64,000 nt of DNA, from positions 27,038 to 91,037 of the forward strand of contig JAQCIU010000001.1 in the NCBI GenBank assembly GCA_027593235.1. The letters run 5' to 3'. Shown piece by piece: positions 2,575 through 58,966 of the stretch. The position numbers were made by a program, and so were the translations under genes. Within the stretch, counting starts at the first letter, position 1. The number at the start of each line of letters is the position of its first letter. Under the pieces are notes generated by a model. That model saw only the letters and a list, made by a program, of their open reading frames with translations, had not been told where the DNA came from and ran no database searches. This stretch comes from Chloroflexota bacterium. GTDB taxonomy: Bacteria > Chloroflexota > Dehalococcoidia > UBA2979.

Positions 2575-3378
2575 CTAGTTCGGGGCGACGGCACGTCCGC
2601 CATCGACGGGGAGTGACACGCCGGTGATGAACTTGGCTTCGTCGCTGTGCAGGAACAACGAGGCGTAGGCGATGTCCCAGCCGCTGCCCATCTTCCGCCC
2701 CAGCGGCACGCTCGCATCTCTCGAGGCGATGACTTGCTCCCGAGGCGTGCCGGCCGCCACCCGCGCTTCGACGGCCATTGGCGTGTTCATCAGGCCGGGG
2801 AGGATGACGTTGGCGCGGATGCCGTATTCCGCGTTGTAGCCGGCGAGGTTCTCCGTCAGCGCGACCACCGCCGCCTTCGTCGTTTTGTAGCCGACATACG
2901 CGTACGCCGAGCGCACCGCCATCGAGGAGATGTTGACGATGGATCCGGAGCCCTGCTCCCGCATCGAGGGCAGCACGTGCTTGCAGGCGAGCCACATGCC
3001 TCGGAGGTTGACCTGGTAGAGGCGGTCGAAGGCCTCCACCTCGAGGTCGGTCGCGACGGCGTCGCCGAGGGCGAGGCTGGCGCCGACGTTGTTGTGCAGC
3101 AGATCGATGCGGTCGTAGGTCGAGAGGCATGCCTGGACGGCGGACCGCACGTCTTCCTCGGCGGTGACGTCGGCGGCGAAGGCGGTCGCCTCTCCACCTG
3201 CGGCGCGGATCGTCTCGGCGGTCGCTTCGGCCGCGAGCAGCTCGCGGTCGACAATGAGGACGCGCGCGCCCTCGCGAGCGAGTAGCTCCGCGGTCGCACG
3301 GCCGTTGCCGATCGTCTCGCCCGGCGTTTGCCCGCCACCGAAGATCAGCAGCACTTTGCCCTCGACTCGTCCGGCCAT
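2575..3378 (-). CDS. Short-chain dehydrogenase/reductase (SDR).
   Basis: GxxxGxG Rossmann motif at the N-terminus (VLLIFGGGQTPGE). The SDR catalytic region is YVGYKTTK. The start was chosen at the ATG encoding MAGRVEGK, and the longer upstream extension is low-complexity. Confidence 0.8.
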   Translation of the reverse strand: MAGRVEGKVLLIFGGGQTPGETIGNGRATAELLAREGARVLIVDRELLAAEATAETIRAAGGEATAFAADVTAEEDVRSAVQACLSTYDRIDLLHNNVGASLALGDAVATDLEVEAFDRLYQVNLRGMWLACKHVLPSMREQGSGSIVNISSMAVRSAYAYVGYKTTKAAVVALTENLAGYNAEYGIRANVILPGLMNTPMAVEARVAAGTPREQVIASRDASVPLGRKMGSGWDIAYASLFLHSDEAKFITGVSLPVDGGRAVAPN

Positions 3379-6821: not shown

Positions 6822-6971
6822 CGGTCCTTGCTACTTCCCGATTGGTCGTTGGAATTGTGAGCGTCCATCCGAGACTAGCCGCCCCAGATTCGAGGGTCAT
6901 CAGACCCGCGGGCTAGCAACTCGACGAAGGAACACACCGAGGCCCGAAGGGTCATCAACCCCCGAAGGGGG

Positions 6972-8114
6972 CTAGTCCAGCGCGGCGATTACGCGGTTCA
7001 CCAGCTCGCTGCGGTCGCCCGCCCAGCGGGTGACGACTACGAGGTCGTGCTCGGGGTCGACGAAGACGATGTTCCCGCCGGCGCCCTGCGCCGCGAACGC
7101 CGAGGCGGGCGCGCCGCTGTAGAGCTGCTGTCCCGTGTTGAGCCACCAGAGGTACCCGTAGCGATCGCTCACCTCGGACGGGGTCAGCGACTCCTCGATC
7201 CAGGCCTCGGAGAGGAGGCGGCGGCCGTTCCACTCGCCTCGGTTCAGCATCAGCAGGCCAAAGCGCGCGTGGTCGAGCGCGCTGATGAACAGCCCGCCAC
7301 CCCAGTGCCCGCCGCCCGGTACCGAGGGCATCGAGACGCCCTCGACGTCGACCCAGGAGTTCTCGTAGGGGTGCCACGTCCACTCCGAGGACGCTCCGAT
7401 CGGGTCCATCACCTCGCGACGGAGCACCTCGGGAAGCGGCTCTTTCCAGATACGGAGCGCGCTGAGCGCGAGCCGGTTCACGCGGACGTCGTTGTATTCC
7501 CAGAAGGAACCGGGCGCCCGTAGTTCGCGCGTCGAGCCCTTCTCTGCCGCAAGTTGTTCGGATCCGCCTACGGCGGTGGCACTGTCCGCTTCGCCTGTCG
7601 AGACCGACGTCCCCTGCACGTCGCGGTGATAGTCCACGCTGTCCGGCCGGTCGAAGAGCGTGCCCTGCCACTCGCTCGTCATCTGGAGCATGTGCTTCCA
7701 GGTGATGCGCGCGTTGTGCTCCGAGTCGAACCCACCGTCGGCGATCCGCTCGCGCATCGGCTCGTCCATCGACCCGAGCATCCCGCGGTCGCGTGCCAGG
7801 CCCACCGTCACCGACAGGTAGCTTTTCGTCGCACTGAAGGTCATGTCGACGCGGCCGGGGTCGCCCCACTCAGCCACGAGGTAGCCATCGCGGATCACGA
7901 GGCCGGCGGCCGGACCTCGATCCTGCGCCGGCCCGAGGATTTCGTCGTAGGGCGGCGGGTCGTTGCGACCGACCATCCTCGAGACATCGATCGGCCAGTC
8001 GATCTCGCTCTCGACGGCGTAACGCACGGCAGCCTCGAGGCGGGCGGGGTCGAAGCCGGCTTCGACCGGATCTTGCCGCGCCCACTCACCGGCCGGGGGA
8101 AAGTACTTGCTCAT
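6972..8114 (-). CDS. Beta-lactamase-family serine hydrolase (class C beta-lactamase or esterase-like).
   Basis: A 380-aa protein with the SxxK active-site motif (FSATKSY) and the overall serine-hydrolase (transpeptidase) fold pattern. Confidence 0.75.
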   Translation of the reverse strand: MSKYFPPAGEWARQDPVEAGFDPARLEAAVRYAVESEIDWPIDVSRMVGRNDPPPYDEILGPAQDRGPAAGLVIRDGYLVAEWGDPGRVDMTFSATKSYLSVTVGLARDRGMLGSMDEPMRERIADGGFDSEHNARITWKHMLQMTSEWQGTLFDRPDSVDYHRDVQGTSVSTGEADSATAVGGSEQLAAEKGSTRELRAPGSFWEYNDVRVNRLALSALRIWKEPLPEVLRREVMDPIGASSEWTWHPYENSWVDVEGVSMPSVPGGGHWGGGLFISALDHARFGLLMLNRGEWNGRRLLSEAWIEESLTPSEVSDRYGYLWWLNTGQQLYSGAPASAFAAQGAGGNIVFVDPEHDLVVVTRWAGDRSELVNRVIAALD

Positions 8115-8889: not shown

Positions 8890-9954
8890 ATGACACTCAA
8901 GACACGCGCGGCGATCAAGGCAAAATTTGGCGAGCCGCTGCTCGTCGATGAGATCGAACTCGCGGACCCGGGCGACGAGGAAGTGCTGGTCAAGCTCTTC
9001 GCGACCGGCATCTGCCACTCGCAGCTCCACCAGATTCACAACCCGGACGGTCCCGTGCCGACGCTGCTCGGCCACGAGGGCACCGGCATCGTCCTCAAGG
9101 CGGGCTCGAAGGTCACCCACGTCAAAGAGGGCGAGCGGGTGATGATCCAGTTCGTCCCGCGCGACCTGCCCGAGGGTATGACCACCGCCAACCGCACCAA
9201 GTACACCTGGCAGGGCAACGAGTACGAGGCCGGCGTCTACACCTGGGCCGAGCACGCGCTGCTGAACGAGCAGATGGTCGTGCCGCTCCCGAACGACGTG
9301 CCGACGGATGTGACGGCGATCATCGGATGCGCCGTCATCACCGGCGCGGGAGCCGCCCTCTACACGGCGGGCGTGCAGCCGGGCCAGTCGGTCGCCGTCT
9401 TCGGCGTCGGCGGGGTCGGGTCGAACGTGGTTGCGGGGGCGAAGATCGCGGGCGCCTACCCGATCATCGCGGTCGACCTCGAGGAGGGGAAGCTCGGCTA
9501 CGCGAAGGAGCTGGGCGCGACCCACACGGTGAACGGCTCTGACGTGCACGCGCCCGACGCGGTGAAGGAGCTGACCGGTGGCGGCGTCGACTTCGCGTTT
9601 GACGCGATCGGCGTACAGGCGGCCTTCCTCCAGTCGGTGGAGAGCGTGAAGTCGGGGGTCCTGGGCGTCAGCCGCGGAGGTGCGGCGGTGATCGTCGGCA
9701 TCGGTCAGGGCGACGTGCCCCTGCCGCGGCTCTTCCCGTTCGGCGAGCGAACGATCATGGGCTCGATGGGCGGCTCGGAGCGCCCGGCAATCGCGATGCC
9801 GAAGTACATCGAGTGGTACAAGGAGGGCAAACTCCCCCTGGAGAAGCTCGTCTCCAAGAAGTACGACAACCTCGACGAGATCAACGAGGGCGTGCGCGCC
9901 CTCGAAAACGGCGAAATCGAGGGCCGTTCGATCATCGTGTACGCCACCCCATAG
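8890..9954 (+). CDS. Zinc-dependent alcohol dehydrogenase (MDR family, class III-like).
   Basis: The Zn-binding region GHEGTGIV, the GICHSQLH motif and the Rossmann motif GVGGVGS are present. A strong RBS, GAGGAGG, lies 7 nt upstream. Confidence 0.9.
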   Translation: MTLKTRAAIKAKFGEPLLVDEIELADPGDEEVLVKLFATGICHSQLHQIHNPDGPVPTLLGHEGTGIVLKAGSKVTHVKEGERVMIQFVPRDLPEGMTTANRTKYTWQGNEYEAGVYTWAEHALLNEQMVVPLPNDVPTDVTAIIGCAVITGAGAALYTAGVQPGQSVAVFGVGGVGSNVVAGAKIAGAYPIIAVDLEEGKLGYAKELGATHTVNGSDVHAPDAVKELTGGGVDFAFDAIGVQAAFLQSVESVKSGVLGVSRGGAAVIVGIGQGDVPLPRLFPFGERTIMGSMGGSERPAIAMPKYIEWYKEGKLPLEKLVSKKYDNLDEINEGVRALENGEIEGRSIIVYATP

Positions 9955-10081
9955 GGGGTCTTCGACCCCCTTCTAGACGCTTCGCGCCTGTTTGCGCAGG
10001 TGCGGAGCGCGGGAGACTTGGGCGGTCGGTGGAGTGGGTTGAGCTAGCGAATTCGCGCGGCCCGGTGCGTATCCTCACTGG

Positions 10082-11479
10082 ATGCTGTTGACCATCTCAA
10101 CGACGCACCGGCCAGCCGACGACCTCGGCTACCTGTTGCACAAGCATCCGCAGCGCGTGCACGAGTTCGCGCTGCCCTACGGCACGGCGCACGTCTTCTA
10201 TCCCGAAGCCACCGAGGACCGTTGCACCGCCGCGCTGCTCCTCGAAATTGACCCGCTGCACATCGCGAGGCGGGGCTTTGGCGTTGCCGATGCGGCGCCG
10301 CTGGGCGCCTATGTGAACGACCGGCCGTATGTGGCGTCGTCTTACCTCAGCGTCGCGCTAGCGAAAGTCGTCGGCTCGGCGATGGGGGGACGCAGCAAGG
10401 AGCGCCCCGAACTCGCCGGCACCCCGATCCCGCTGATCGCGACGCTCGAGGTGGTGCCGTCACGCGACGCGGGCGTTCCGCGCCGGCTGTTCGAGCCGCT
10501 GGGCTACCGCGTCGAGACCTCGAGGTTGGCGAACGACCTCCTCGATAGCCCCGGCGCCGCGGAGCCGGCGCTGAGCCCGTACGTGACGCTACGCCTCGAG
10601 GGGACCGTGACGGTTGCCGAGCTGCTGACGCACCTCTATGTCCTGATGCCCGTGCTGGACGACGCGAAGCACTACTTCATCGGCGACGACGAGGTCGAGA
10701 AGCTGCTGAGCCGTGCTGGCACGTGGTTGTCCTCCCATCCCGAGCGCGAGTTCATCGCCACGCGCTACCTCAAGCACCAGCGGTGGTTCGCGGACGCCGC
10801 CCTCGCGCGCCTGTCCGAGGGTGCTCCGCCGCTCGAGGAGGAGGTCGACGCCCCGGACGTTGAGCCGGCAGTCCCGGCGACGCCGCTGAACCAGCAGCGC
10901 ATCGATGCCATCGTCGCGGCGCTCCACGGTGTCGGCGCGCATACGGTCATTGACCTCGGATGCGGCGAGGGCCGTCTCCTCGGCGCGCTCTACGAGGATC
11001 GTGACTTCACACGCATCGTTGGGATGGACGTCTCGCCCTGGTCGCTGCGCGCAGCCGGGCGACGGTTGCACCTCGACAACCTGCCGGAGCGGCAGCGGGA
11101 CCGGTTGCAGGTGATGCAGGGGTCGCTGCTCTACCGCGACGCGCGGCTCAGCGGCTTCGACGCCGGTGTCCTCTCCGAGGTGATCGAGCATATTGAGCCG
11201 GACCAGTTACCACGCCTCGAGCGGGTCGTGTTTGGCGAGGCGCATCCGAACGCCGTGATCGTCACGACCCCGAACCGTGACTTCAACGCGCGTATCCCGG
11301 CGCTCGCTGCCGACGAGCGCCGTCATCGCGATCACCGCTTCGAATGGTCGCGGGCGGAGTTCGGCGACTGGGCGACCTCGGTTGCCGAGCGGTTCGGGTA
11401 CAGCGCCGAGGTCGGCGGGATTGGCGAGGCCGATCCGGCGCTGGGGTCGCCGACGCAGGTGGCGGTGTTCCGCGCATGA
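10082..11479 (+). CDS. hen1: Bacterial Hen1, the RNA 3'-terminal ribose 2'-O-methyltransferase of the Pnkp-Hen1 RNA-repair system.
   Basis: A 465-aa protein with a C-terminal SAM-dependent methyltransferase domain (VIDLGCGEGRLL...GMDVS). It has the length and architecture of bacterial Hen1. The stop overlaps the pnkp start by ATGA. Confidence 0.75.
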   Translation: MLLTISTTHRPADDLGYLLHKHPQRVHEFALPYGTAHVFYPEATEDRCTAALLLEIDPLHIARRGFGVADAAPLGAYVNDRPYVASSYLSVALAKVVGSAMGGRSKERPELAGTPIPLIATLEVVPSRDAGVPRRLFEPLGYRVETSRLANDLLDSPGAAEPALSPYVTLRLEGTVTVAELLTHLYVLMPVLDDAKHYFIGDDEVEKLLSRAGTWLSSHPEREFIATRYLKHQRWFADAALARLSEGAPPLEEEVDAPDVEPAVPATPLNQQRIDAIVAALHGVGAHTVIDLGCGEGRLLGALYEDRDFTRIVGMDVSPWSLRAAGRRLHLDNLPERQRDRLQVMQGSLLYRDARLSGFDAGVLSEVIEHIEPDQLPRLERVVFGEAHPNAVIVTTPNRDFNARIPALAADERRHRDHRFEWSRAEFGDWATSVAERFGYSAEVGGIGEADPALGSPTQVAVFRA

Positions 11480-13824
11480 ACCTCACCGTTCCGAAGCTCA
11501 GCCTCGTCGTGCTGGTCGGCGTCTCCGGTTCGGGAAAGTCGACGTTCGCGCGGACCGCGTTCGAACCGTCCGAGGTGCTGTCGTCCGACCACTTCCGCAC
11601 GCTGGTCGCGAACAACGTCGAGGACCAGTCCGCCACCCCGGACGCATTCGAGGCGCTCCAGTTCGTGGCGGGCAAGCGGCTCGCGCGCGGGTTGCTCACG
11701 GTGATCGACGCGACCAACGTGCAGCCGCAGGCGCGGAAGCCACTCCTCGATCTCGCGCGTGCGCACGACGTGTTCGCGGTCGCGATCGTCCTCGATGTTC
11801 CGCTTGCGGACGCGCTGGCACGCAACGAGGCGCGCGCCGACCGGGTGACGCCGCCACCGGCGATCCGCCGGCAGCACGACCAGCTACGGCGTTCGATTCG
11901 CCGGCTCCGCAAGGAGGGCTTCCGCTTCGTCCATGTCCTCGATGGCTCCGAGGACCCTGCGTCGATCACGATTGAGCGAGAGCGGTCGTGGAACGACCGC
12001 CGCTACGAGACCGGCCCGTTCGACATCATCGGCGACGTGCACGGCTGCTTCGACGAACTGCGGGCGCTGCTCGACCGCCTCGGCTACAACGTCCGGGAGA
12101 TTCCCGAAGCAGGGCTGCCGCACAGCTTCGAGGTGACCCCGCCGGCGGGACGGCGCGCGATCTTCCTCGGTGACCTCGTCGACCGAGGGCCGGACACGCC
12201 TCGGGTGCTCGGGCTGGCGATGAGCATGGTCCGAGGCGGCTCCGCGCTGGCGGTCACCGGGAACCACGACGACAAGCTGTTGCGGGCGCTGCGCGGCAGG
12301 CGGGTGCAAACGACGCACGGCCTCGCCGAGTCGCTGGAGCAGCTCGCACGCGAGCCGGAGGGCTTCCGGGCGGAGGTGGTCGAGTTCCTCGATGGGTTGA
12401 TCGCGCACTACGTCCTCGATGGCGGTCAGCTCGTGGTCGCGCACGCGGGGCTCAAGGAGCCGTACCAGGGCCGCGCCTCCGGACGCGTCCGCAGCTTCGC
12501 GCTGTACGGCGAGACCACCGGCGAGACCGACGAGTTCGGGCTGCCGGTCCGCTACCCGTGGGCGCAGGTGTATCGAGGCGCCGCGACGGTGGTGTATGGC
12601 CACACGCCGGTGCTCGAGGCGGAGTGGGTGAACCGCACGATCTGCGTCGATACGGGGTGTGTGTTCGGCGGCAGGTTGACCGCGCTCCGCTATCCGGAGA
12701 ACGAGCTGGTCTCAGTACCGGCTGTCCAGATCTACTACGAGCCGATTCGCCCGCTTGCGGGCGCCGAGCCCGATGAGCGCGAGCGGGATCTCCTCGACAT
12801 CAACGACGTGACAGGCAAGCGGATCGTCTCGACCGGGCTCGCCGGCAACGTCACGATCCTCGAGGAGCAGTCCGCGGCCGCGCTGGAGGTGATGAGCCGC
12901 TGGTCGATGGATCCTCGGTGGCTGCTCTACCTGCCGCCGACGATGTCGCCGCCCGAGACGAGCACGGATCCGGGGCTCCTCGAGCACCCGGCCGAGGCGT
13001 TCGCGTATTTCCGCAAGCAGGGTGTCGCCGAGGTCGTGTGCGAGGAGAAGCACATGGGCTCGCGGGCGATCGTCGTCGTCTGTCGCGACCCCGAGGTGGC
13101 CGCCCGCTCGTTCGCACCGGCCGAGGCCGGCGGCGTCATCTACACCCGCACCGGCCGGCGCTTCTTCGAGGATCCCGAGCTGGAGCGGGCGCTCCTTGAT
13201 CGCGTGCGGGCGGCGCTGACCAGCACCGGCCTATGGGACGAGCTCGACACCGACTGGCTGGCGATCGACGGCGAGATCATGCCGTGGTCCTACAAGGCCC
13301 ACGAGCTTCTGGAGCGGCAGTACCTCCCCGTCGGCGTCGCCGCGACGGCGTCGCTTTCGAGGGCGGTCGAGCTGTTGCGCGCCACGGAGGCACGAGGCGT
13401 CGACGTCTCGGCGCTTCGCTCCCGCATCGAGGAACGGGTACCGCTCGCCGATCGCTACCGGGAGGCGCTGCGCCCGTACTCCTGGGCGGTTGGCTCGGCG
13501 GACGACATCCGCTTCGCTCCGTTCCAGTTGCTGGCCAGCGCGCCCGAGGTCCTCGCGAGGCGTGACCACCGCTGGCACATCGAGCTGTGCCAGCGTCTCG
13601 CCGACGCGGACGGGCAGGTGATCGTGACTACGCCTTCGCGCGTGGTGGAGATCGCCGACGCCGCCGCGCAGAGCGAGGCCACCGAGTGGTGGCTAGGGCG
13701 GACGCGGACCGGCGGCGAAGGCATGGTCGTGAAGCCTCTCGGCGAACGGGCGCTCGACCGGCGGGTGCAGCCCGGCGTGAAGGTCCGCGGCCGCGAGTAC
13801 CTCCGCATCATCTACGGGCCGTAG
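11476..13824 (+). CDS. pnkp: Polynucleotide kinase-phosphatase Pnkp, ending at an in-frame TAG.
   Basis: Three domains are present: a P-loop kinase (GVSGSGKST), a calcineurin-like phosphatase (GDVHG, GNHD) and a C-terminal adenylyltransferase/ligase domain (EEKHMGSRAIVV). The start was set at ATG 11476 (MNLTVPKL). The same frame stays open and protein-like for 65 more codons beyond the TAG, up to TAA 14017-14019. Confidence 0.8.
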   Translation: MNLTVPKLSLVVLVGVSGSGKSTFARTAFEPSEVLSSDHFRTLVANNVEDQSATPDAFEALQFVAGKRLARGLLTVIDATNVQPQARKPLLDLARAHDVFAVAIVLDVPLADALARNEARADRVTPPPAIRRQHDQLRRSIRRLRKEGFRFVHVLDGSEDPASITIERERSWNDRRYETGPFDIIGDVHGCFDELRALLDRLGYNVREIPEAGLPHSFEVTPPAGRRAIFLGDLVDRGPDTPRVLGLAMSMVRGGSALAVTGNHDDKLLRALRGRRVQTTHGLAESLEQLAREPEGFRAEVVEFLDGLIAHYVLDGGQLVVAHAGLKEPYQGRASGRVRSFALYGETTGETDEFGLPVRYPWAQVYRGAATVVYGHTPVLEAEWVNRTICVDTGCVFGGRLTALRYPENELVSVPAVQIYYEPIRPLAGAEPDERERDLLDINDVTGKRIVSTGLAGNVTILEEQSAAALEVMSRWSMDPRWLLYLPPTMSPPETSTDPGLLEHPAEAFAYFRKQGVAEVVCEEKHMGSRAIVVVCRDPEVAARSFAPAEAGGVIYTRTGRRFFEDPELERALLDRVRAALTSTGLWDELDTDWLAIDGEIMPWSYKAHELLERQYLPVGVAATASLSRAVELLRATEARGVDVSALRSRIEERVPLADRYREALRPYSWAVGSADDIRFAPFQLLASAPEVLARRDHRWHIELCQRLADADGQVIVTTPSRVVEIADAAAQSEATEWWLGRTRTGGEGMVVKPLGERALDRRVQPGVKVRGREYLRIIYGP

Positions 13825-30029: not shown

Positions 30030-30062
30030 AGAGCCGGGGCATTCACCCCGGCTCTTCTGTTG
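30030..30062. terminator. Bidirectional intrinsic terminator.
   Basis: A 10-bp GC-rich stem, AGAGCCGGGG/CCCCGGCTCT, with loop CATTCA, followed by TCTGTT. It lies between the convergent acnA-GNAT unit and the inositol-phosphate synthase gene. Confidence 0.7.
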
Positions 30063-40768: not shown

Positions 40769-41797
40769 GTGCGCATGCCATACCGGGCTGAATACATCTG
40801 GATCGACGGGACCGTGCCGACGGTTGAATCGGGCTTCGTCGGACCGCTCGTTCGGTCAAAGACGAAGGTGCTGGCAGACGGCGAGGAGCCGGGTATCTGG
40901 GGCTTTGATGGTTCAAGCACGAACCAGGCACCAGGTGCGAACTCCGACTGCGTGCTGAACCCCGTGTACGCCTGCCCGGATCCAGTCCGCGGCGGAGACG
41001 ACGTGCTGGTGCTGTGCGAGGTGCTGCTGCCAGACATGACGCCACACCCGACGAACACGCGTCGCGGTTGCGTGGCGGTGGCGGAGAAGTACGCCCACCA
41101 CGAGTCGTGGTTCGGCATCGAACAGGAATACACCTTCTTTAAGGACGGCCGACCGCTTGGCTGGCCGGCCGCCGGCTACCCCGGTCCGCAGGGTCCGTAC
41201 TACTGCGGCGTGGGCGCAGACGAGATCTGGGGTCGCGACGTTGTCGAGGCGCACACGACCGCTTGCATGGAGGCCGGGATTCAGATCGCCGGCACCAACG
41301 CCGAGGTGATGATGGGGCAGTGGGAGTTCCAGATTGGGCCAGTCGGCCCGGTCGAGGTCTCCGATCAGCTCTGGGTCGCCCGCTGGCTGCTGTACCGCGT
41401 CGCCGAAGAGTTCGACATTGTCGCGACGCTGAACCCAAAGCCGATCCCAGGCGACTGGAACGGCGCAGGCGCGCACACGAACTTCTCGACGAAGTCGATG
41501 CGCGAGTCGTACGAGCCGATCGTGATCGGCGCGGAAGCGCTGGGTAAGAAGCACGATCTGCACATCACGAACTACGGCGCTGGTATCGATCAGCGGCTGA
41601 CCGGTATGCACGAGACCGCTCCGTGGACGGAGTACAGCTACGGCGTCTCCGACCGCGGCGCCTCGGTCCGCATCCCGTGGCAGACGGCTCGCGATAAGAA
41701 GGGCTACCTCGAGGATCGTCGCCCGAACGCGAACATGGATCCGTACACGGTCACCCGACTGGTCACGGACACGATCTGCGAAGCCCTCGACGCCTAA
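40769..41797 (+). CDS. glnII: Glutamine synthetase type II (eukaryote-like GSII).
   Basis: A 342-aa protein containing AEYIWIDG, the GS signatures (GPYYCGVGAD, NPKPIPGDWNGAGAHTNFS) and the ATP-binding region. Confidence 0.9.
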   Translation: MRMPYRAEYIWIDGTVPTVESGFVGPLVRSKTKVLADGEEPGIWGFDGSSTNQAPGANSDCVLNPVYACPDPVRGGDDVLVLCEVLLPDMTPHPTNTRRGCVAVAEKYAHHESWFGIEQEYTFFKDGRPLGWPAAGYPGPQGPYYCGVGADEIWGRDVVEAHTTACMEAGIQIAGTNAEVMMGQWEFQIGPVGPVEVSDQLWVARWLLYRVAEEFDIVATLNPKPIPGDWNGAGAHTNFSTKSMRESYEPIVIGAEALGKKHDLHITNYGAGIDQRLTGMHETAPWTEYSYGVSDRGASVRIPWQTARDKKGYLEDRRPNANMDPYTVTRLVTDTICEALDA

Positions 41798-41840
41798 CCC
41801 CCTTCGGGGGGTGACGACGCTTCGCGCCTCGTTGGCGTGG
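41798..41840 (+). repeat. Stop-adjacent UUCG-hairpin element, copy A (plus orientation).
   Basis: It follows the glnII TAA directly: CCCCCTTCGGGGGG TGACGACGCTTCGCGCCTCGTTGGCG. Confidence 0.7.
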
Positions 41841-41860
41841 GGTTGCGGTAGGAACACTGA

Positions 41861-41891
41861 GGCGGGGCCGCAAGGCCCCGCCTTTCTTTTC
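41861..41891 (+). terminator. Canonical rho-independent terminator downstream of glnII.
   Basis: A 9-bp GC-rich stem, GGCGGGGCC/GGCCCCGCC, with a GNRA loop GCAA, followed by TTTCTTTTC. Confidence 0.8.
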
Positions 41892-42237
41892 GCCCTTCGC
41901 GGGATCGGTGTTCAGCCGCTGGAGCGGAGGCACGGCTGTGGGGCGGGCACCCGCCCTCTGTCCGCTCCAGCCCCCAGCCCCCAGCCGCGCTTCGCGGTCG
42001 CGTTCTGAGCGACGCCTAGGCCACGTTCCGTTCTTTTCGGCCCTGCCTCCCGCCGCCGCGACGGGTGTCGTAGTCGCGCCAGTTGCGGCGCAGAGCAGTC
42101 GCGCCCTGCGTCGCAGCGCACAGCGTGGCAGCGCCCACTGAGCGGGTGAGTGGCAGCGCCCACTGTGCGGGTGCGCGGCCCTCGAGGGGTGGGCCGCGGC
42201 GACCGAGGGCGTCCCGATCCGGACACCCTCGGTCGTT

Positions 42238-42282
42238 GGTTCAACGGCAACGGGCGCGAAGCGTCGTCGAGCCCCGAAGGGG
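42238..42282 (-). repeat. Stop-adjacent UUCG-hairpin element, copy B (minus orientation, inverted relative to copy A).
   Basis: Read on the minus strand from the ech TAG: CCCCTTCGGGGC TCGACGACGCTTCGCGCCCGTTGCCG. It is about 90% identical to copy A. Confidence 0.7.
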
Positions 42283-43215
42283 CTAGTACTCCTTGCGGTT
42301 GGGTTCGGTGGTGGGGGCTTCGGTGCCGGCGACGGCGCGGTCCTTGGGGGCCGAGTCGTAGGCGCCTCGGAAGTCGCGGAAGGGGCCGTCCCGCCATTCG
42401 AGGGCGCCTTTGAGGCCGTCTTCCTGGACGCGGCGTCCCCACTCGGCGGCGGCGGGGCGGAGCGCGCTGAGCGCCTGGATCTCCGTGCCGGAGGCGATCC
42501 CGTGGCGGATGCCCATGCTTTCGTACTGCCGGTTCACGGCGCGCTTGGAGTACATCAGCATATCGTTGTCGATGTGCGCCATGCGTCGGGCGAACTGCTC
42601 CGTGAATTCGTCCAGTTGGTCGCGCGGGACTGCGTAGTTGGCCCAGCCGAGGCGTGCCATCTCGGTACCGGAGACCGAATCTCCGACATAGGCGAACTCT
42701 CGAGCCTTGGCCGGGGGGAGGTGCCAGGGCGCCCACATCATGTCCATGGTGGTCATGGCGCGGACGGGCGGGTACCCGATCAGGGCGTCGTCCGCGACGA
42801 TGCGGAAATCACAGATCGTGGCGAGTTCGGTACCGCCAGCCAGGCAGTGGCCGTGAACCTGGGCGACGACCGGCTTCGCGAGTTCCCAGATGGTCCAGTT
42901 GGTCATGACCACGTGACGCGACCAGGTCTGGGGGCCGGGGTGGGTAGTGCCGGTTTCGGGCAGGTGCGATCGCGGGTTGACCATGTCGTTCTCGCCGGCG
43001 GCGCGGGATGGGGAGAGGTCGTAGCCGGCGGAGAAGGATCGACCGGCGGCTTTGAGGACGATGACGCCGACATCGGGGTCGTGCTCTGCTTCGCGCATCG
43101 CGTCCATGACTTCGCCGCGGAGGTTATTGCTCAGGGCGTTCAGTTTTTCGGGGCGGTTCAGCGTGATGAAGGCGAGGCGGCCATCGGTTTCGTAGATGAT
43201 GTCGCGGTAGTCGGG
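42283..43215 (-). CDS. Enoyl-CoA hydratase/isomerase (crotonase family).
   Basis: LAFITLNRPEKLNAL...AAGRSFSAGYDL...AQVHGHCLAGGTELA carries the crotonase signature. The start was set at MPDYRD. Confidence 0.85.
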   Translation of the reverse strand, partial: PDYRDIIYETDGRLAFITLNRPEKLNALSNNLRGEVMDAMREAEHDPDVGVIVLKAAGRSFSAGYDLSPSRAAGENDMVNPRSHLPETGTTHPGPQTWSRHVVMTNWTIWELAKPVVAQVHGHCLAGGTELATICDFRIVADDALIGYPPVRAMTTMDMMWAPWHLPPAKAREFAYVGDSVSGTEMARLGWANYAVPRDQLDEFTEQFARRMAHIDNDMLMYSKRAVNRQYESMGIRHGIASGTEIQALSALRPAAAEWGRRVQEDGLKGALEWRDGPFRDFRGAYDSAPKDRAVAGTEAPTTEPNRKEY

Positions 43216-43469
43216 CATCTCAGAATCTCCTCGGTGCTGTGCGCGCAGTCGGTGGGCGGGCACTCGGCAGATATATAACACTCGCGTGGTTGGCGTCCGA
43301 CCGCGGCCCGCCCGTATCCCTGACGAGCAGGCGGCCCCCGCACTCCCCGCTCGATGGTTCCTGTCCTGAGGCGCGCTCCCCGAGCGACGGCAGTTCGGCC
43401 TCGGGCGGTTCGACGGGCCTCGGAGGATTGGCTAACTGAGGCGAAGCACCATCAAGCCCCGAAGGGGCA

Positions 43470-44714
43470 CTAGCCGATCACCAGGGGAACGGTCATTTCG
43501 CGGTGGGAGAGACCGGAGTGGTGGGATCGCTGCTCCATGAAGTGCTCGCCATCGGCGCCGCCAGTGTAGCGCATCACGGAGTCATCGAGGGCGAGCGAGG
43601 TGAGGTCGCCGACGCGGCGCCGGGTTTCGTCGGCGAGTGGGTCCGGGCCAAGCAGCCGGAGATCCTCGAGATCCTGCGTGGAGATGAGAGCGAAGTGATC
43701 GCCGAAGCGCGACTCGAAGGCGCGGATGAAGGCGTCGTGCGCACCTTCGCGGAGGTGGTAGAAGCCGAGGCGCATGTCGCCGGAGGGCGGCGTGGTCAGG
43801 AAATCGATGAGCGGATCGTCGCCGGCGATCGGGAAGCGGGCGCCGGCGTCGCGGTGGCCGTGATCGGCGGTGAGGACGATGCGGGCATTGAGGCCGGAGA
43901 GGGTGGTCGCGAGTTCCGCGAGGCTTTCATCGATGTCGGCGAGGGCGTCGCGGGCCTCGTCCGATTCGGCGCCGTGCTCATGCGATTCGTGATCGAAGGC
44001 GGAGGTGTACCAGTAGGTGAAGGTGGGGCGGGAGGCGCCACCGATGCGTTCGGCGATGAGGTCGGCTGCCTGACGGTGGGTGCGGTACGCGAGGGTGGCG
44101 GCGCCGGCGCCGAACCAGGTGGAATAGGCGGAGTTGATGATCGCCCGTGGCTGGGAGACGGCGGCATCGGCGGTCATCCGACCGATCAGCGGCGTGCCGC
44201 GAAAGACCTCGGTGGGATCGACGCCGCAGTCGAGGAGCGCCGCGCCGTCTCCGAGGCGGATGAATGGGAGCACGCACGCGGTCTCGCGGAGTTGTGGCAG
44301 GTAGGTCCACCAGCCGACGGCGCCGTGTTCGGCCGGCCAGAGGCCGGTCGCCATCGAGGTGATGGCGGCGGCGGTGGTGGAGGGAAAGACGCTCTGGAGG
44401 TCACAGGCGAACTGGCGGCGCAGCCAGGAGTGGCGCGGCAGGTCGTCGAAAGCGTGGGTGCCGAGGCCGTCGACGAGGACGAAGACGATGTGCGAGGGCT
44501 GGCCGATCTGGTTGCTGATCGCCTTTGCGTTCGGCGAGAGATCGAGATCCGGGACGCCGCTGAGGGCCCCGACGGCGCGCACGAGATCGATGACGTTGGG
44601 TTGGGATGCGTCAGGGCGGCAGAGTGCATCAGCCTCGAATGCCGCGAGTAACCGGTCAACGTCGCCCATCGCGTCCGCCCTCGTTGGCGCCGACCGTAAC
44701 CGATTGGTGGGCAT
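43470..44714 (-). CDS. Alkaline-phosphatase-superfamily metalloenzyme (type I phosphodiesterase / nucleotide pyrophosphatase or phosphonoacetate-hydrolase-like).
   Basis: VFVLVDGLGTHAF and LTADHGH are metal-ligand motifs of the AP superfamily. Confidence 0.6.
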   Translation of the reverse strand: MPTNRLRSAPTRADAMGDVDRLLAAFEADALCRPDASQPNVIDLVRAVGALSGVPDLDLSPNAKAISNQIGQPSHIVFVLVDGLGTHAFDDLPRHSWLRRQFACDLQSVFPSTTAAAITSMATGLWPAEHGAVGWWTYLPQLRETACVLPFIRLGDGAALLDCGVDPTEVFRGTPLIGRMTADAAVSQPRAIINSAYSTWFGAGAATLAYRTHRQAADLIAERIGGASRPTFTYWYTSAFDHESHEHGAESDEARDALADIDESLAELATTLSGLNARIVLTADHGHRDAGARFPIAGDDPLIDFLTTPPSGDMRLGFYHLREGAHDAFIRAFESRFGDHFALISTQDLEDLRLLGPDPLADETRRRVGDLTSLALDDSVMRYTGGADGEHFMEQRSHHSGLSHREMTVPLVIG

Positions 44715-54163: not shown

Positions 54164-54261
54164 CCGAGACCGATCGACCTCGAGAGCTGAAACGGCCGTC
54201 GCGAGAGCGACGGCCGTTTCGTTGTCGCGTCCGCGCGTGCGCGCGGCCGTCGCGCGTGCGG

Positions 54262-55575: not shown

Positions 55576-55795
55576 CGGATGCGGTCCTCGGCGGGTGCAC
55601 GCGGGGGGCTCGGCGCGGCGGGTTGGGTGTCGCCGTGGGACAGGATCGAGTGCGCCAGGGCATGCGTCCAATGCATAGTTCGATGGTGATCGATGTGCAC
55701 TGATCATGGGCGGTTGCGGGCGTGATCCTCGACACTGGATCGCTCCGCCGGCCCGGCAGCGGTGGCGTGAACAGGTAGCGAGCAGGGAGAGCCAG

Positions 55796-56647
55796 ATGTC
55801 ACGGATCGTCTACGTCAATGGCGAGTACGTGCCGGAGGAGCAGGCAAAGGTCTCGGTCTTCGACCGCGGATTCCTGTTCGCGGACGGGGTCTACGAGGTG
55901 TCGGCGGTCCTCGATGGGCGGCTGGTGGACAACGCGGCGCACCTGGCGCGGCTGGAGCGGTCGCTGGCGGAGCTGAAGCTGACGCCGCCGGTGCCGCTGT
56001 CGGAGATCCCGACGATCCAGCAGGAGGTGGTGACGCGGAACGGGGTGGGGCAGGGGCTGGTTTACCTGCAGATCACGCGCGGCGCTGCCGATCGCGACTT
56101 TGCGTTCCCGACCGATGCCGTTCCGTCGCTGGTGATGTTTTCGCAGACGCGGAACCTGCTGGAGGATCCGGTGGCGGCGCGCGGGATCTCGGTGGTGACG
56201 ATGCCTGATCTGCGCTGGGCGCGGCGCGACATCAAGACGGTGCAGTTGGTGGCGGCCTCGATGGCGAAGCAGGCGGCGCGGGATGCTGGCGCGGACGACG
56301 CGTGGCTGGTCGAGGACGGCGTGATCACCGAGGCCACCTCGAGCAACGCGTACATCGTGACGGCCGACGGGACGATCGTGACGCGTGCGTTGTCGCACGC
56401 GATCTTGCACGGGATCACGCGACGCGCGGTCTTGCGACTGGCCTCGGAGAACGGACTGGACGTCGAGGAGCTTGGCTTCTCCGTCAAGGAAGCGCAGGCC
56501 GCGCGCGAAGCGTTCGTAACGAGCGCAACGGGGCTGGTGATGCCAGTGGTGCGGATCGACGGGCAGGAGATCGGCGACGGGACGCCGGGGCCGATCGCGA
56601 AGCGGCTGCGCGAGCTGTACCTGGAGATGGCGCGCGCCGAGGCGTGA
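55796..56647 (+). CDS. Class IV (fold-type IV) PLP aminotransferase, D-amino-acid / branched-chain type.
   Basis: SVFDRGFLFADGVYEV is the class-IV N-terminal signature. The product is 283 aa. RBS GGAGAG. Confidence 0.85.
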   Translation: MSRIVYVNGEYVPEEQAKVSVFDRGFLFADGVYEVSAVLDGRLVDNAAHLARLERSLAELKLTPPVPLSEIPTIQQEVVTRNGVGQGLVYLQITRGAADRDFAFPTDAVPSLVMFSQTRNLLEDPVAARGISVVTMPDLRWARRDIKTVQLVAASMAKQAARDAGADDAWLVEDGVITEATSSNAYIVTADGTIVTRALSHAILHGITRRAVLRLASENGLDVEELGFSVKEAQAAREAFVTSATGLVMPVVRIDGQEIGDGTPGPIAKRLRELYLEMARAEA

Positions 56648-56650
56648 CGC

Positions 56651-56690
56651 CGCCCCTTGCCGCCCCTTGCCGCCCCTCGCCGCCCCTCGC
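56651..56690. repeat. Four tandem decamers, CGCCCCT(T/C)GC.
   Basis: cgccccttgc cgccccttgc cgcccctcgc cgcccctcgc, immediately after the aminotransferase TGA and within the 62-bp convergent intergenic gap. Confidence 0.8.
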
Positions 56691-56709: not shown

Positions 56710-58098
56710 TCAGGCGGGGAGCAACTCCGTGAGCTTCGCCATGGCGGGTTGTACCTGGGCGAGGTAGCGCCCGATCTGTTGGGCGGCCTCGGGGTTGGCT
56801 CGCAGGCGATCACCGGACAGCTTCAGCGGGTTGAGCCGCGAGGTGTCGAGCCACTCGTTGAGCTTTGGGTGCTGACGCCACACCTGCCTGGCCGCGACGT
56901 CCAACTGGAACATGCGCAGCCAGTCCTCCGGCACCTCGGGTGGGGAGATCGGCACGCAGAGGGCGTTCTTCTCCACTTCATCGTCGAAGGCCGATTCGAC
57001 GTAGGCGATGAACGCGGCACTGAGGGTGGGCTGACAGGTCCGCACCCACTGCAAGGTGATCCGGTCGCCGTCGAAGATGGCGGTTGATGGCTTCGCCGGG
57101 ATGCCGGCGGCGGAACAGTCGACGTAGAGGCAGTTGGCGGGAGCGGGGACGTTCCCCCGTTCGAGGTGGATCTCTCGGGCGTCGATGCTGGTCACCCGTC
57201 CGAGCCGGATGATGTCGCTGATGCCCCGCAACTGCGCGAGTTCGGCGTCGCTGAGCGTGGCGCAGTGGTAGGCGGTCGGCGTCACGGCGGGGTCGATCCG
57301 GGCGAGTTCACCCGTCGATTCGAGGTGCGCGAAGACGTCATCGATCGATTGCGCGGTCGCGATCGCTTCCATCTGATCGGCGAGGCTGCGGCAGAACCGC
57401 GTGAGGAACTGATCGCCGGTCTGGAAGTTGGCGCGATTCAGCACCCAGGAATCGCGGGGCATGACCCAGTGGATGCGGTCGGGGCTGACCCCGTACTCCA
57501 GCAACCACATGCAGGCGTCCATGCCGGTCTTTCCAGCTCCGATCACGACGTAGTCGTGGAAGTCGGGCGCCAGTCGCGGCAGATTGTTGAGCGGGACGCA
57601 GGTGAGCTCGGCGGCCACCTCGTATGCGGGCGGGGTGGTGGCGGGGATCCGCATCTGCGACCACGTGGCGTCGACGGTCCGCGACGCACTCACCTCGATC
57701 CGTTCGCCGGAGAGGCGAGAGACGATCGCGCCGTCATCTTCGACCTCGCTCATCGGGAAGAACTGGACGCGACCGGAGGGCAGCAGGCGCTGTCGCATGG
57801 TCTGGTCGAAGTGATTGACGACCTCGTGCCCCGAGGCGAGTTCCCGCAGTCCGGCGTTCGACCCGGACTGGTCGATCGCCCCGGTGCCGAGCTCCAGCGA
57901 GTTCACGCCGTAGAAGCTGGAGGGCTGATGCAGGCGAACGAACGGGTAGGCGTCGTTCCAGTGGCCGCCGGCACGGTCACGCCGGTCGACGATTGCCATC
58001 GTGGCGTCGGATTCGGAGAGCAGCGTATCGGCGAACGCGATGCCGACGGCGCCGGCTCCGATGATCAGGTAGTCCACGTCGAGTTGGTTCGAGGGCAT
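56710..58098 (-). CDS. FAD/NAD(P)-binding oxidoreductase (flavin-monooxygenase-like, with two dinucleotide-binding motifs).
   Basis: DYLIIGAGAVG near the N-terminus and DYVVIGAGKTGMD about 170 aa later. The start was set at MPSNQLDV. The 90 upstream codons of the listed ORF are low-complexity. Confidence 0.7.
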   Translation of the reverse strand: MPSNQLDVDYLIIGAGAVGIAFADTLLSESDATMAIVDRRDRAGGHWNDAYPFVRLHQPSSFYGVNSLELGTGAIDQSGSNAGLRELASGHEVVNHFDQTMRQRLLPSGRVQFFPMSEVEDDGAIVSRLSGERIEVSASRTVDATWSQMRIPATTPPAYEVAAELTCVPLNNLPRLAPDFHDYVVIGAGKTGMDACMWLLEYGVSPDRIHWVMPRDSWVLNRANFQTGDQFLTRFCRSLADQMEAIATAQSIDDVFAHLESTGELARIDPAVTPTAYHCATLSDAELAQLRGISDIIRLGRVTSIDAREIHLERGNVPAPANCLYVDCSAAGIPAKPSTAIFDGDRITLQWVRTCQPTLSAAFIAYVESAFDDEVEKNALCVPISPPEVPEDWLRMFQLDVAARQVWRQHPKLNEWLDTSRLNPLKLSGDRLRANPEAAQQIGRYLAQVQPAMAKLTELLPA

Positions 58099-58279
58099 GC
58101 TGCTACTCTGATGATTGCGCTCGCCGCGCGGGATGGGCCTGTGCACGGTACCGGCGGGAACGCCGATCGACCCGTCGAGTAGCGCCCCGTCGCCAACAGA
58201 TTCCGCACGGTTGTCGCCGTGCAACGGTACCTGAGCGGCGCGGGATCGCCGAGGATCGCCATCGACGGGGGTGCGGCAG

Positions 58280-58966
58280 CTACGAGTGCTGCGCGAGGCT
58301 CTCTTCGCGGAGCTCGATGTGGGTGAGCAGGAAGTCGCGGGCGAGGGCGACGAGGTGGCCCGTGGCATCGGCGAGGGCGATCACGCGCGGCTCGCTGAGG
58401 ACGATCGTGAACTCCTGACGCTCGCCGCCGCGGTCGTGGCCGACGAGGCGCAGGAGCGGCGGGTCGCCGGGTTCGAGAAGGGCGATCGGCGGGCCGCCTT
58501 CGTGGACGCGGATGATGTCGGCGTGGCGGGCGAGGTCCGTGACGGAGGCGAGTTCGGCGGCGCTGTCGATCGCCGTTTCGTCGAGGCCCATGGCACGCGC
58601 GAGGTCGCCGGGATGCGCCTCGAAGACGGCTTCGGCGAAGGTGCGCCAGTCCTCGGAGGTGGGGAGTGGCTTCAGCAGCGCGCGGCCGACCGGGATCGAG
58701 CGATCGCGGAGCGCGTTACAGACGGCGACCAGTCGCTGCGCCGCCTCGGCGAGTTCCGTGAGGAGCTGCGCGGCGAGCACGGCGCGGTGGCGGTCCTCGG
58801 TGCGAAAGATGCGTTCGAGGATCGCGTCGGAGACGGTCTCAATGCGGCGCAGCGTGGCGTCGTCGTAGGCGCGGAGGAACGCCAGTTCGCTGCCGATGGG
58901 GTAGTCGTTGGTCACGGCGCTGCTCCCGGTAGGTGGTGGGGACGCCTCGGAGGAGGTGCTTCGCAT
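58280..58966 (-). CDS. Hypothetical protein.
   Basis: A 228-aa globular-looking protein with no family I can name. The start was set at MRSTSSEAS. Confidence 0.45.
   Translation of the reverse strand: MRSTSSEASPPPTGSSAVTNDYPIGSELAFLRAYDDATLRRIETVSDAILERIFRTEDRHRAVLAAQLLTELAEAAQRLVAVCNALRDRSIPVGRALLKPLPTSEDWRTFAEAVFEAHPGDLARAMGLDETAIDSAAELASVTDLARHADIIRVHEGGPPIALLEPGDPPLLRLVGHDRGGERQEFTIVLSEPRVIALADATGHLVALARDFLLTHIELREESLAQHS

Follow-up and report, generated by a model that had tools for sequence, protein, structure and literature searches.

A family of short two-hairpin repeats directly behind stop codons in marine, high-GC Chloroflexi, with a possible role at the 3' end of messages

We analysed 64 kb of DNA from a Chloroflexota bacterium (contig JAQCIU010000001.1; 68% GC), which we call the window. 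In it two genes converge, glnII, for a type II glutamine synthetase, and a gene of the enoyl-CoA hydratase/isomerase family (ECH), leaving a gap of 485 nt (41798-42282). Each is followed at its stop codon by a copy of one short repeat, here the element, and the two copies, A and B, face each other across the gap. An earlier note on this DNA had described a pair of near-identical, stop-adjacent sequences of about 45 nt behind glnII and ECH, and interpreted them, with the structured DNA that they enclose, as a miniature inverted-repeat transposable element (MITE)-like insertion or a structured small RNA locus. The pair is real and lies where it had been placed. Its interpretation is different: we are highly confident that the two arms are members of a clade-restricted family of two-hairpin repeats that abut stop codons. 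Literature searches found no earlier description of this family. The two genes and the copies of the element in the window are as follows, bit scores referring to the covariance model R1 introduced below.

40775-41797, + strand: glnII, type II glutamine synthetase, 340 aa (Pfam Gln-synt_N/C).
41798-41834, + strand: copy A, directly past the glnII stop codon TAA (41795-41797); 53.6 bits, E = 7e-10.
42247-42283, - strand: copy B, at the ECH stop codon TAG (42283-42285), an inverted repeat with copy A; 48.5 bits.
42283-43218, - strand: ECH, enoyl-CoA hydratase/isomerase family gene, 311 aa (Pfam ECH_1/ECH_2).
43432-43468, - strand: copy C, 1 nt past the stop codon TAG (43470-43472) of a type I phosphodiesterase/nucleotide pyrophosphatase gene (Pfam); 50.0 bits.
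6935-6971, - strand: copy D, directly past the stop codon TAG (6972-6974) of a beta-lactamase-family gene (6972-8114; Pfam); 52.9 bits.
9956-9994, + strand: copy E, 1 nt past the stop codon TAG (9952-9954) of a zinc-dependent dehydrogenase gene (Pfam); 41.4 bits.

R1 was built from an alignment (A2) of 28 copies taken from the window and from related loci. Run over the whole window with filters off, it returned exactly five matches, at 41-54 bits, with the next best at 17 bits. Each of the five follows a gene of its own, beginning no more than 1 nt from the stop codon, on the same strand and with the first hairpin on the stop-codon side; copies C, D and E had been overlooked in the earlier note. 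Pairwise comparison gives a matching picture. Over 30 nt the arms 41799-41828 and 42253-42282 show 90% complementarity, and they lie 424 nt apart; BLASTN of the arms within the window aligns 40 nt at 87.5% (E = 4e-6), and the 16-mer GACGACGCTTCGCGCC has exactly two occurrences in the 64 kb, one in each arm. With the whole segment as query, BLASTN against the rest of the window recovers the end sequence at 6935-6971 and 43434-43467 and, more weakly, near 9976-10005. Counting copies, as the earlier note had proposed, proved to be the right test. The 45-nt arm has three further copies in the window; of the interior no second copy was found either in the window or in the related loci. The inverted arrangement of copies A and B follows from the convergence of two element-bearing genes.

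The element is about 37-40 nt long and consists of hairpin 1, a linker, hairpin 2 and a weak tail. In copy A hairpin 1 occupies 41798-41810 (CCCCC-TTC-GGGGG), the linker 41811-41815 and hairpin 2 41816-41828 (GACGC-TTC-GCGCC), followed by the tail TCGTTG. Hairpin 1 of copy B (42271-42283, GCCCC-TTC-GGGGC) starts with a G that is also the final base of the ECH stop codon, and its hairpin 2 lies at 42253-42265; copy E carries the hairpin 1 variant GGGTC-TTC-GACCC. Across the 28-copy alignment hairpin 1 has a 5-bp stem and a UUC loop closed by an invariant C...G (pentamer CUUCG), and is 99.3% paired. Compensatory changes affect four of the five pairs (CCCCC/GGGGG, GCCCC/GGGGC, GGGTC/GACCC, GCCAC/GTGGC, CCAAC/GTTGG), and R1 matches outside the alignment add the stems AAACC/GGTTT and GCGC/GCGC. 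On inspection of the alignment these variants fit a UUC triloop register alone and not a C(UUCG)G tetraloop. The covariation score of the whole structure is 0.32 against 0.09 for column shuffles, none of 500 of which reached it, and it collapses once the partners are slid by one column or more. A search of the window for intergenic hairpins that combine a perfect 4-bp stem with a CTTCG loop returned the five hairpin 1 copies and no others.

The remainder of the element is conserved in a different manner. The linker of about 7 nt has the consensus YYGAYGA. Hairpin 2 takes the form G-A-C-S[CUUCG]S-G-C-C, in which one pair alternates between G-C and C-G (21 versus 5 sequences) and an A·C mismatch is conserved, with A-U in its place in three copies. 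Beyond hairpin 2 there is a weak U/G-rich tail, which reads UGUUUG in about a quarter of the copies, and conservation stops roughly 12 nt beyond the hairpin 2 loop. Hairpin 2 emerged from the alignment only; a uniform minimum free-energy fold for the second half of the element was considered and rejected, the folds varying from copy to copy.

The rule of position was derived from 33 R1 matches in the window and the related loci. Nineteen start no more than 2 nt past the stop codon of a long, same-strand open reading frame (ORF) with a high GC content at third codon positions (GC3); three more, judged by eye, lie 0-3 nt past a stop codon, and most of the others are second or third units of tandem arrays. 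A few copies are orphans, and one of these (locus L007) lies antisense to the genes on either side. Copies that follow no gene are not preceded by TAG or TAA, and we therefore assign the stop codon to the gene and not to the repeat. The alternatives in which the stop codon belongs to the element, or in which TA or YTAR is an insertion target, are not supported, since these gene-less copies lack TAR and no matching duplicate is found at the far end. Among about 17 independent stop-adjacent sites TGA occurs only once (P roughly 0.002-0.05, depending on the background), a scarcity that is suggestive in a sample of this small size. By a crude gene finder based on GC3, TAG looks to be the stop codon used most often in the window (35 TAG, 13 TGA and 5 TAA); proper gene calls from a related genome (loci L028 and L034) are divided more evenly, into 11 TAG, 14 TGA and 9 TAA.

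Some copies stand in closer contact with coding sequence. In two cases hairpin 1 has become part of the coding sequence at the end of an ORF (L006 6373-6389 and L011 2874-2890), where a LexA gene ends ...RPFGA-stop and another ORF ...WAPFGG-stop, and each is followed by another copy of the element. Copy C is located in a 251-nt gap ahead of the co-directional ECH gene, and some copies lie about 70 nt or less ahead of the next co-directional gene (L020 6074 and copy D), the downstream start being uncertain. Two further ideas about the junction with the gene were discarded. A read-through peptide would have no common sequence, the copies standing in different frames relative to the stop codon (four versus five C, or an extra TG). 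An outer helix formed by the last codons and the tail, in the manner of the R''/R' pairing of attC sites, gave three suggestive cases and overall did no better than mismatched controls.

Retention of the element at orthologous sites could be followed in two loci of one species (L012 and L028, 99.7% identical to each other), which are syntenic with about 35.8-52.5 kb of the window at 76-85% nucleotide identity (about 83% in genes). Both keep the element at the same three stop codons, those of the phosphodiesterase, ECH and glnII genes, and nowhere else in the shared stretch of about 17 kb. Orthologous copies are 25-30% different, yet the structure is kept; at the glnII site, for example, CCCCC/GGGGG of the window is GCCAC/GTGGC in L012, a structure-preserving change. 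The spacer between ECH and glnII in these loci measures about 760 nt and cannot be aligned with the 412 nt of the window. In another, marine relative (L021/L022, 86% identity in ECH) about 190 nt separate the two elements and the gene facing ECH is not glnII; the copy that faces the ECH copy in L021 (830-866, + strand) is an orphan with no recognisable upstream ORF. The prediction of a MITE or of a small RNA is contradicted by this pattern, in which the end elements are conserved and the 'core' is not. The L012 spacer also contains a direct duplication of its own, of about 230-300 nt and 86% identity (2811-3353, corresponding to L028 11002-11545). A 33-nt piece of this duplication recurs elsewhere in the two loci and may be a different small repeat.

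The element is restricted to one clade of marine Chloroflexi/Dehalococcoidia with 66-72% GC. An exact-pattern scan of reference genomes, with one genome per species, gave 14 places, six of them in the metagenome-assembled genome (MAG) CBDFJZ01 of a Dehalococcoidia bacterium (68-70% GC). The other eight comprise two in one low-GC (36-39%) gammaproteobacterial MAG and singles in unrelated genomes, and since all of them lack the element tail they are taken as chance matches. Scanning JGI metagenomes produced 8 contigs of 66-72% GC, for which the identifiers and one ENA record named seawater metagenome indicate a marine source, and R1 detected many more copies in the related loci, some of them in tandem, two to four units in a row (L011, L006 and L009). 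An NCBI protein of 'MAG: Chloroflexi bacterium' matches the zinc-dependent dehydrogenase of the window at 100% identity, and the exact protein sequences of glnII and ECH are already recorded in metagenome assemblies or contigs. No match was obtained in viral contigs, and a phage origin was rejected on that ground.

Within this range and around it the copies are patchy. The element does not occur in the 21-kb stretches sampled from more distant relatives around homologues of the dehydrogenase (L035 and L036) or of ECH (L033), in three unrelated genomes (loci L029-L032) with an ECH gene 82-85% identical in protein, or in 21 kb around a dehydrogenase homologue (87% aa) in a stretch that is also present in the CBDFJZ01 MAG. 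A candidate degenerate copy behind the L036 dehydrogenase homologue reached only 4 bits and was dropped. So was the idea that the element travels with the ECH gene, homologues of 79-85% aa occurring in other contexts without it. The ECH homologues of 82-85% aa in L029-L032 occupy very different contexts, type IV pilus gene neighbourhoods among them, and some similar ECH proteins carry the NCBI label Gammaproteobacteria, which suggests that the ECH gene has been horizontally transferred.

Between copies A and B lie three further features, all inside the glnII-ECH gap.

41835-42246, no strand: palindrome-rich non-coding spacer between copies A and B, 412 nt (fold z-scores; no coding signal).
41859-41894, + strand: canonical intrinsic terminator of glnII, with an 11-bp GC stem, a GCAA loop and a T-run (terminator scans).
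42125-42174, no strand: 25-nt tandem duplication (x2), 92-95% identical, inside the spacer.

The contents of this interior had been described correctly: the GNRA-loop terminator, the 25-bp tandem duplication, the palindromes (one at 42200-42235) and the further hairpins are all present. The absence of an ORF is likewise borne out. Mechanical ORFs of 65-77 aa in the interior have flat GC contents at the three codon positions (GC1/GC2/GC3 about 0.7/0.7/0.75, against 0.64/0.48/0.82 in the flanking genes), and nothing in the spacer therefore looks coding; a small protein was rejected for the same reason. Folding, which had been proposed as a check, showed strong structure in 41841-42237 that is equal on both strands (z = -4.2 and -4.4, no shuffle out of 100 reaching either value). 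At gathering thresholds Rfam has no match anywhere in the window, and the region itself yields chance-level matches only (E of at least 3); no promoter-like site was found in the spacer region. The terminator hairpin of glnII (41859-41884, then TCTTTTCG) begins 25 nt past copy A, which suggests that the element is not the main terminator of that gene and suits a 3'-UTR element better. Canonical terminators are scarce in the window, the terminator scan giving about three convincing ones for roughly 50 genes.

A number of other observations were made in passing. The spacer hairpin CCGCG-CTT-CGCGG (41986-41998) shares a GCTTCGCG core with hairpin 2 of the element and may be the decayed remnant of a former copy. 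Two other canonical terminators, at 30030-30055 and 54192-54217, have perfect 11-bp GC stems and T-runs and stand just past gene ends; the first scored on both strands and so appears bidirectional, and the second, in a convergent gap, scored on the plus strand only. At 56648-56690, in the 62-nt gap between the convergent genes 55706-56647 (+) and 56710-58368 (-), there are 4.3 tandem repeats of the 10-nt unit CGCCGCCCCT. Immediately downstream of copy E lies an RNA-repair gene pair on the + strand, Hen1 (10082-11479) and Pnkp (11344-13824), an adjacency that is probably coincidence.

We favour the view that the element acts on the sense transcript, as an RNA-level module of the 3' untranslated region (3' UTR). 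Four properties lead us to it: the strict orientation, the distance of 0-2 nt from the stop codon, the invariant loops on variable stems and the retention of copies amid scrambled flanks. We put such a 3'-end role at about an even chance, leaning slightly towards it. The element would be transcribed as the first 40 nt or so of the 3' UTR, where its hairpins, a very stable hairpin 1 with its GC stem and the shorter hairpin 2, may bar 3'-to-5' exonucleases just short of the stop codon and so protect the 3' end of the message. In combination with the weak U/G-rich tail the hairpins may, in addition, cause RNA polymerase to pause or to terminate. A ribosome at a stop codon holds a stretch of the mRNA downstream, and this footprint covers the position of hairpin 1. 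Lying within the 12-15 nt or so that would be covered, hairpin 1 is predicted to be melted at each termination event, and its folding would thereby be coupled to translation, as reported for stop-proximal repetitive extragenic palindromes (REPs) of E. coli. That both loops are identical and that the linker and the A·C mismatch are conserved suggests recognition of the element by a factor specific for its sequence. Those copies that stand close before a co-directional gene resemble intercistronic REPs, which stabilise the upstream message, as in the malE-malF case.

Several observations weigh against an action as sense RNA. Owing to the conserved A·C mismatch, hairpin 2 is marginal in the sense transcript (about -1.5 kcal/mol); the antisense strand has G·U at that place and reaches -4.4 kcal/mol, and antisense pairing is the better in 17 of the 28 copies. 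In hairpin 1 none of 139 cells is a G·U pair, and the outer pair flips from G-C to C-G (15 versus 11). On both counts hairpin 1 resembles a DNA palindrome that is maintained, or replaced by other copies, more than the product of stepwise drift in an RNA. Neither hairpin is followed by a real U-tract. The closest MAG has only 6 exact-pattern matches in more than 3 Mb, which argues against a general gene-end device, and no element stands behind the three closest dehydrogenase homologues (82-91% aa), although their neighbourhoods differ and true orthology is uncertain. Finally, the tandem arrays (L011 and L006) and the differences in presence and absence show gain, loss or duplication of copies at the level of DNA. 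On either reading there must be a process that multiplies the copies in the DNA.

A more ambitious form of the RNA-level reading, to which we give little weight, would make the element the cis-mark of an undescribed post-transcriptional system. In it a dimeric RNA-binding protein or nuclease would recognise a pair of hairpins with CUUCG caps located exactly at the stop codon, and in a defined group of genes termination would decide whether a message is degraded, trimmed at its 3' end or subject to ribosome rescue. Hairpin 1 is proposed to be exposed only when no terminating ribosome is present.

The main rival is serious, although we consider it unlikely: a selfish, DNA-level repeat of the REP/REPIN type, copied by a REP-associated tyrosine transposase (RAYT) or an HUH transposase of the IS200/IS605 type, or spread by replication slippage and gene conversion. 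Position and orientation behind stop codons would then be the remains of selection after insertion, whether random or targeted, and any effect in RNA a by-product. A hairpin 1 that is a perfect Watson-Crick palindrome, free of G·U and altered by whole-pair flips, and a hairpin 2 with a conserved mismatch that pairs better on the opposite strand are as this account would have them. Asymmetric imperfections are typical of the hairpins that HUH enzymes read. The linker, TTGAT or TTGAC, resembles the short fixed sequences beside IS200/IS605 hairpins, a likeness of value as a lead only. Tandem arrays, differences in presence and absence and the occasional absorption of copies into ORF ends, as in the LexA gene, also fit a mobile repeat, and REPs likewise lie no more than 20 bp from the 3' ends of ORFs (PMC3733652).

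Nevertheless, orientation follows the gene and not the chromosome, as is plain from the convergent glnII and ECH copies, opposed to one another 424 nt apart. At least 19 copies have hairpin 1 on the stop-codon side, and a selection filter by itself would be expected to leave copies at distances far less tight than 0-2 nt. Three sites have outlasted about 17% nucleotide divergence and the scrambling of the DNA around them. The GTAG/CGTC tag, target-site duplications and short-spaced head-to-head dimers are lacking, and no transposase lies beside any copy examined.

A second alternative, which we regard as doubtful, is that the element serves a dimeric RNA-binding protein or ribonuclease as a two-part binding site, with two CUUCG hairpins about 18 nt apart that would define a stop-marked regulon. 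The invariance of the CUUCG loop in both hairpins on stems that vary, the fixed spacing, the conservation of linker and mismatch and the strict orientation would all be explained, and a modest copy number beside genes of diverse function is compatible with a regulon. Against this, the element-bearing genes have no obvious common function, the conservation of the loops could reflect recent common descent of the copies, and hairpin 2 is barely stable on its own.

That 41798-42282 is a MITE-like insertion with terminal inverted repeats, or holds a small RNA gene in its interior, we now consider very improbable. A 30-40-nt inverted repeat does stand at both ends of a strongly structured interior, and the flanks CTAA and CTAG could pass for a YTAR target duplication. 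These flanks are simply the two stop codons, however, and they flip between TAA and TAG in orthologues. The supposed terminal repeat stands alone behind three other stop codons, the interior is single-copy, and in relatives the same end elements enclose unrelated interiors of about 190 and 760 nt. A small RNA gene calls for conservation, a promoter and a stranded structure, but the spacer is unalignable in L012 and L021, has neither a promoter-like site nor an Rfam match, and is structured equally on both strands, as DNA palindromes would be and a stranded RNA would not. We give next to no credence to an ordinary long bidirectional terminator region whose ends are alike by chance, the outcome that the earlier note had named as its refutation: in its favour are the convergence of the genes, the canonical terminator and the frequency of GC-rich hairpins at 68% GC, but five copies reach 41-54 bits where the background does not exceed 17 bits, the family turns up again in independent assemblies and hairpin 1 covaries.

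Among known systems, those closest to the element are REPs and a mycobacterial motif taken up below. The element and REPs are both short (20-40 nt), GC-rich, dispersed hairpin repeats that occur mostly just downstream of ORFs, often in convergent gaps, and that sometimes touch or enter the end of an ORF. REPs lie near the point where the upstream ORF ends, and for many of them an action as RNA, in mRNA stabilisation, has been proposed (PMC3733652); those no more than 15 nt from a stop codon stall ribosomes in E. coli, according to the summary of Liang et al. (2015) in PMC12306157. The differences are considerable. The unpaired GTAG/CGTC tag of the REP super-families (Di Nocera et al., 2013) is missing: the bases ahead of hairpin 1, mostly CTAG or CTAA, come from the stop codon of the gene and do not stand before copies that follow no gene, and CGTC occurs only inside the antisense stem of hairpin 2. 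The element consists of two small hairpins with identical loops, a REP of one palindrome of 8-13 bp. Its orientation to the gene is fixed and it lies 0-2 nt from the stop codon; REPs take both orientations, are typically paired in head-to-head dimers and lie within 20 nt. We observed no such dimers at short spacing, only head-to-tail arrays (L011, L006 and L009) and the one inverted pair 424 nt apart. If REPs are defined by a single stem of 5-13 bp with a loop of 2-20 nt, hairpin 1 alone, at 5 bp, extragenic and downstream of genes, is of that kind, whereas the conserved unit is two hairpins and a linker in apparently modest copy number. No RAYT or other transposase lies beside the copies examined, a statement limited to these loci, as a complete genome of the clade was not scanned.

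The 'Tuberculosis Rho-independent terminator' (TRIT) of Mycobacterium offers a parallel in behaviour. Reported from that genus only, it has 147 copies of a conserved hairpin, confined to a very narrow range of distances from the stop codon (Gardner et al., 2011; PMC3152330), and TRITs coincide with only 2-4% of mapped transcript ends (10.1101/2022.06.01.494293). Like the element it is lineage-restricted, multi-copy and conserved in both sequence and structure, in a high-GC genome poor in canonical terminators, with a binding factor suspected and function unproven. By the same measure of position, 19 copies of the element start no more than 2 nt from the stop codon. A TRIT is one long, mostly bidirectional palindrome that overlaps the coding end at about -8; the element is directional, has two hairpins and begins past the stop. 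The sequences appear unrelated and the phyla differ, so the likeness is one of behaviour by description and not of membership.

Intrinsic terminators share with the element a GC hairpin just past a gene and, in some copies, a short U/G-rich UGUUUG. Its stems are only 5 bp, however, there is no U-tract of 7-9 nt, and its sequence is conserved between unrelated genes; in the gap region the terminator scan reports only 41859-41894 and none of the element copies. MITEs and REPINs likewise have an inverted pair of related ends in multiple copies. In the element the repeating unit is the 37-nt end alone, the interior being neither repeated nor conserved, and the spacing of the pair is set by the arrangement of the genes. 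A search for target-site duplications found the stop codons as flanks and no consistent duplicate at the far end of single copies. Unlike the attC arrays of integrons, the element accompanies genes in conserved chromosomal synteny and in both orientations, and attC-like complementarity of the flanks was not detected (mean longest perfect run 4.1 nt, against 3.8 nt in mismatched controls).

Targets of CsrA/RsmE provide a different kind of comparison. Dimers of these proteins bind two hairpins with GGA loops, in 5' leaders over the ribosome-binding site. The element shares with such targets two hairpins with the same loop at a fixed short spacing, but is placed at the 3' end and has CUUCG loops.

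We have filed the element as a new family among the short hairpin repeats that are dispersed at gene ends. Two earlier reports exist of short conserved hairpins tied to stop codons, the stop-proximal REPs of E. coli and the mycobacterial TRIT, and their function is unsettled. The element is a third, apparently unrelated family, from a different phylum, that obeys the same positional rule. Taken together, the three cases suggest that a structure inside the footprint of the terminating ribosome is a solution reached repeatedly in high-GC bacteria that lack canonical terminators. For annotation the lesson is that, where two element-bearing genes converge, the resulting inverted pair can pass for the termini of a mobile element. 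The strict orientation of the present family and its two identical loops make it the easier one to test.

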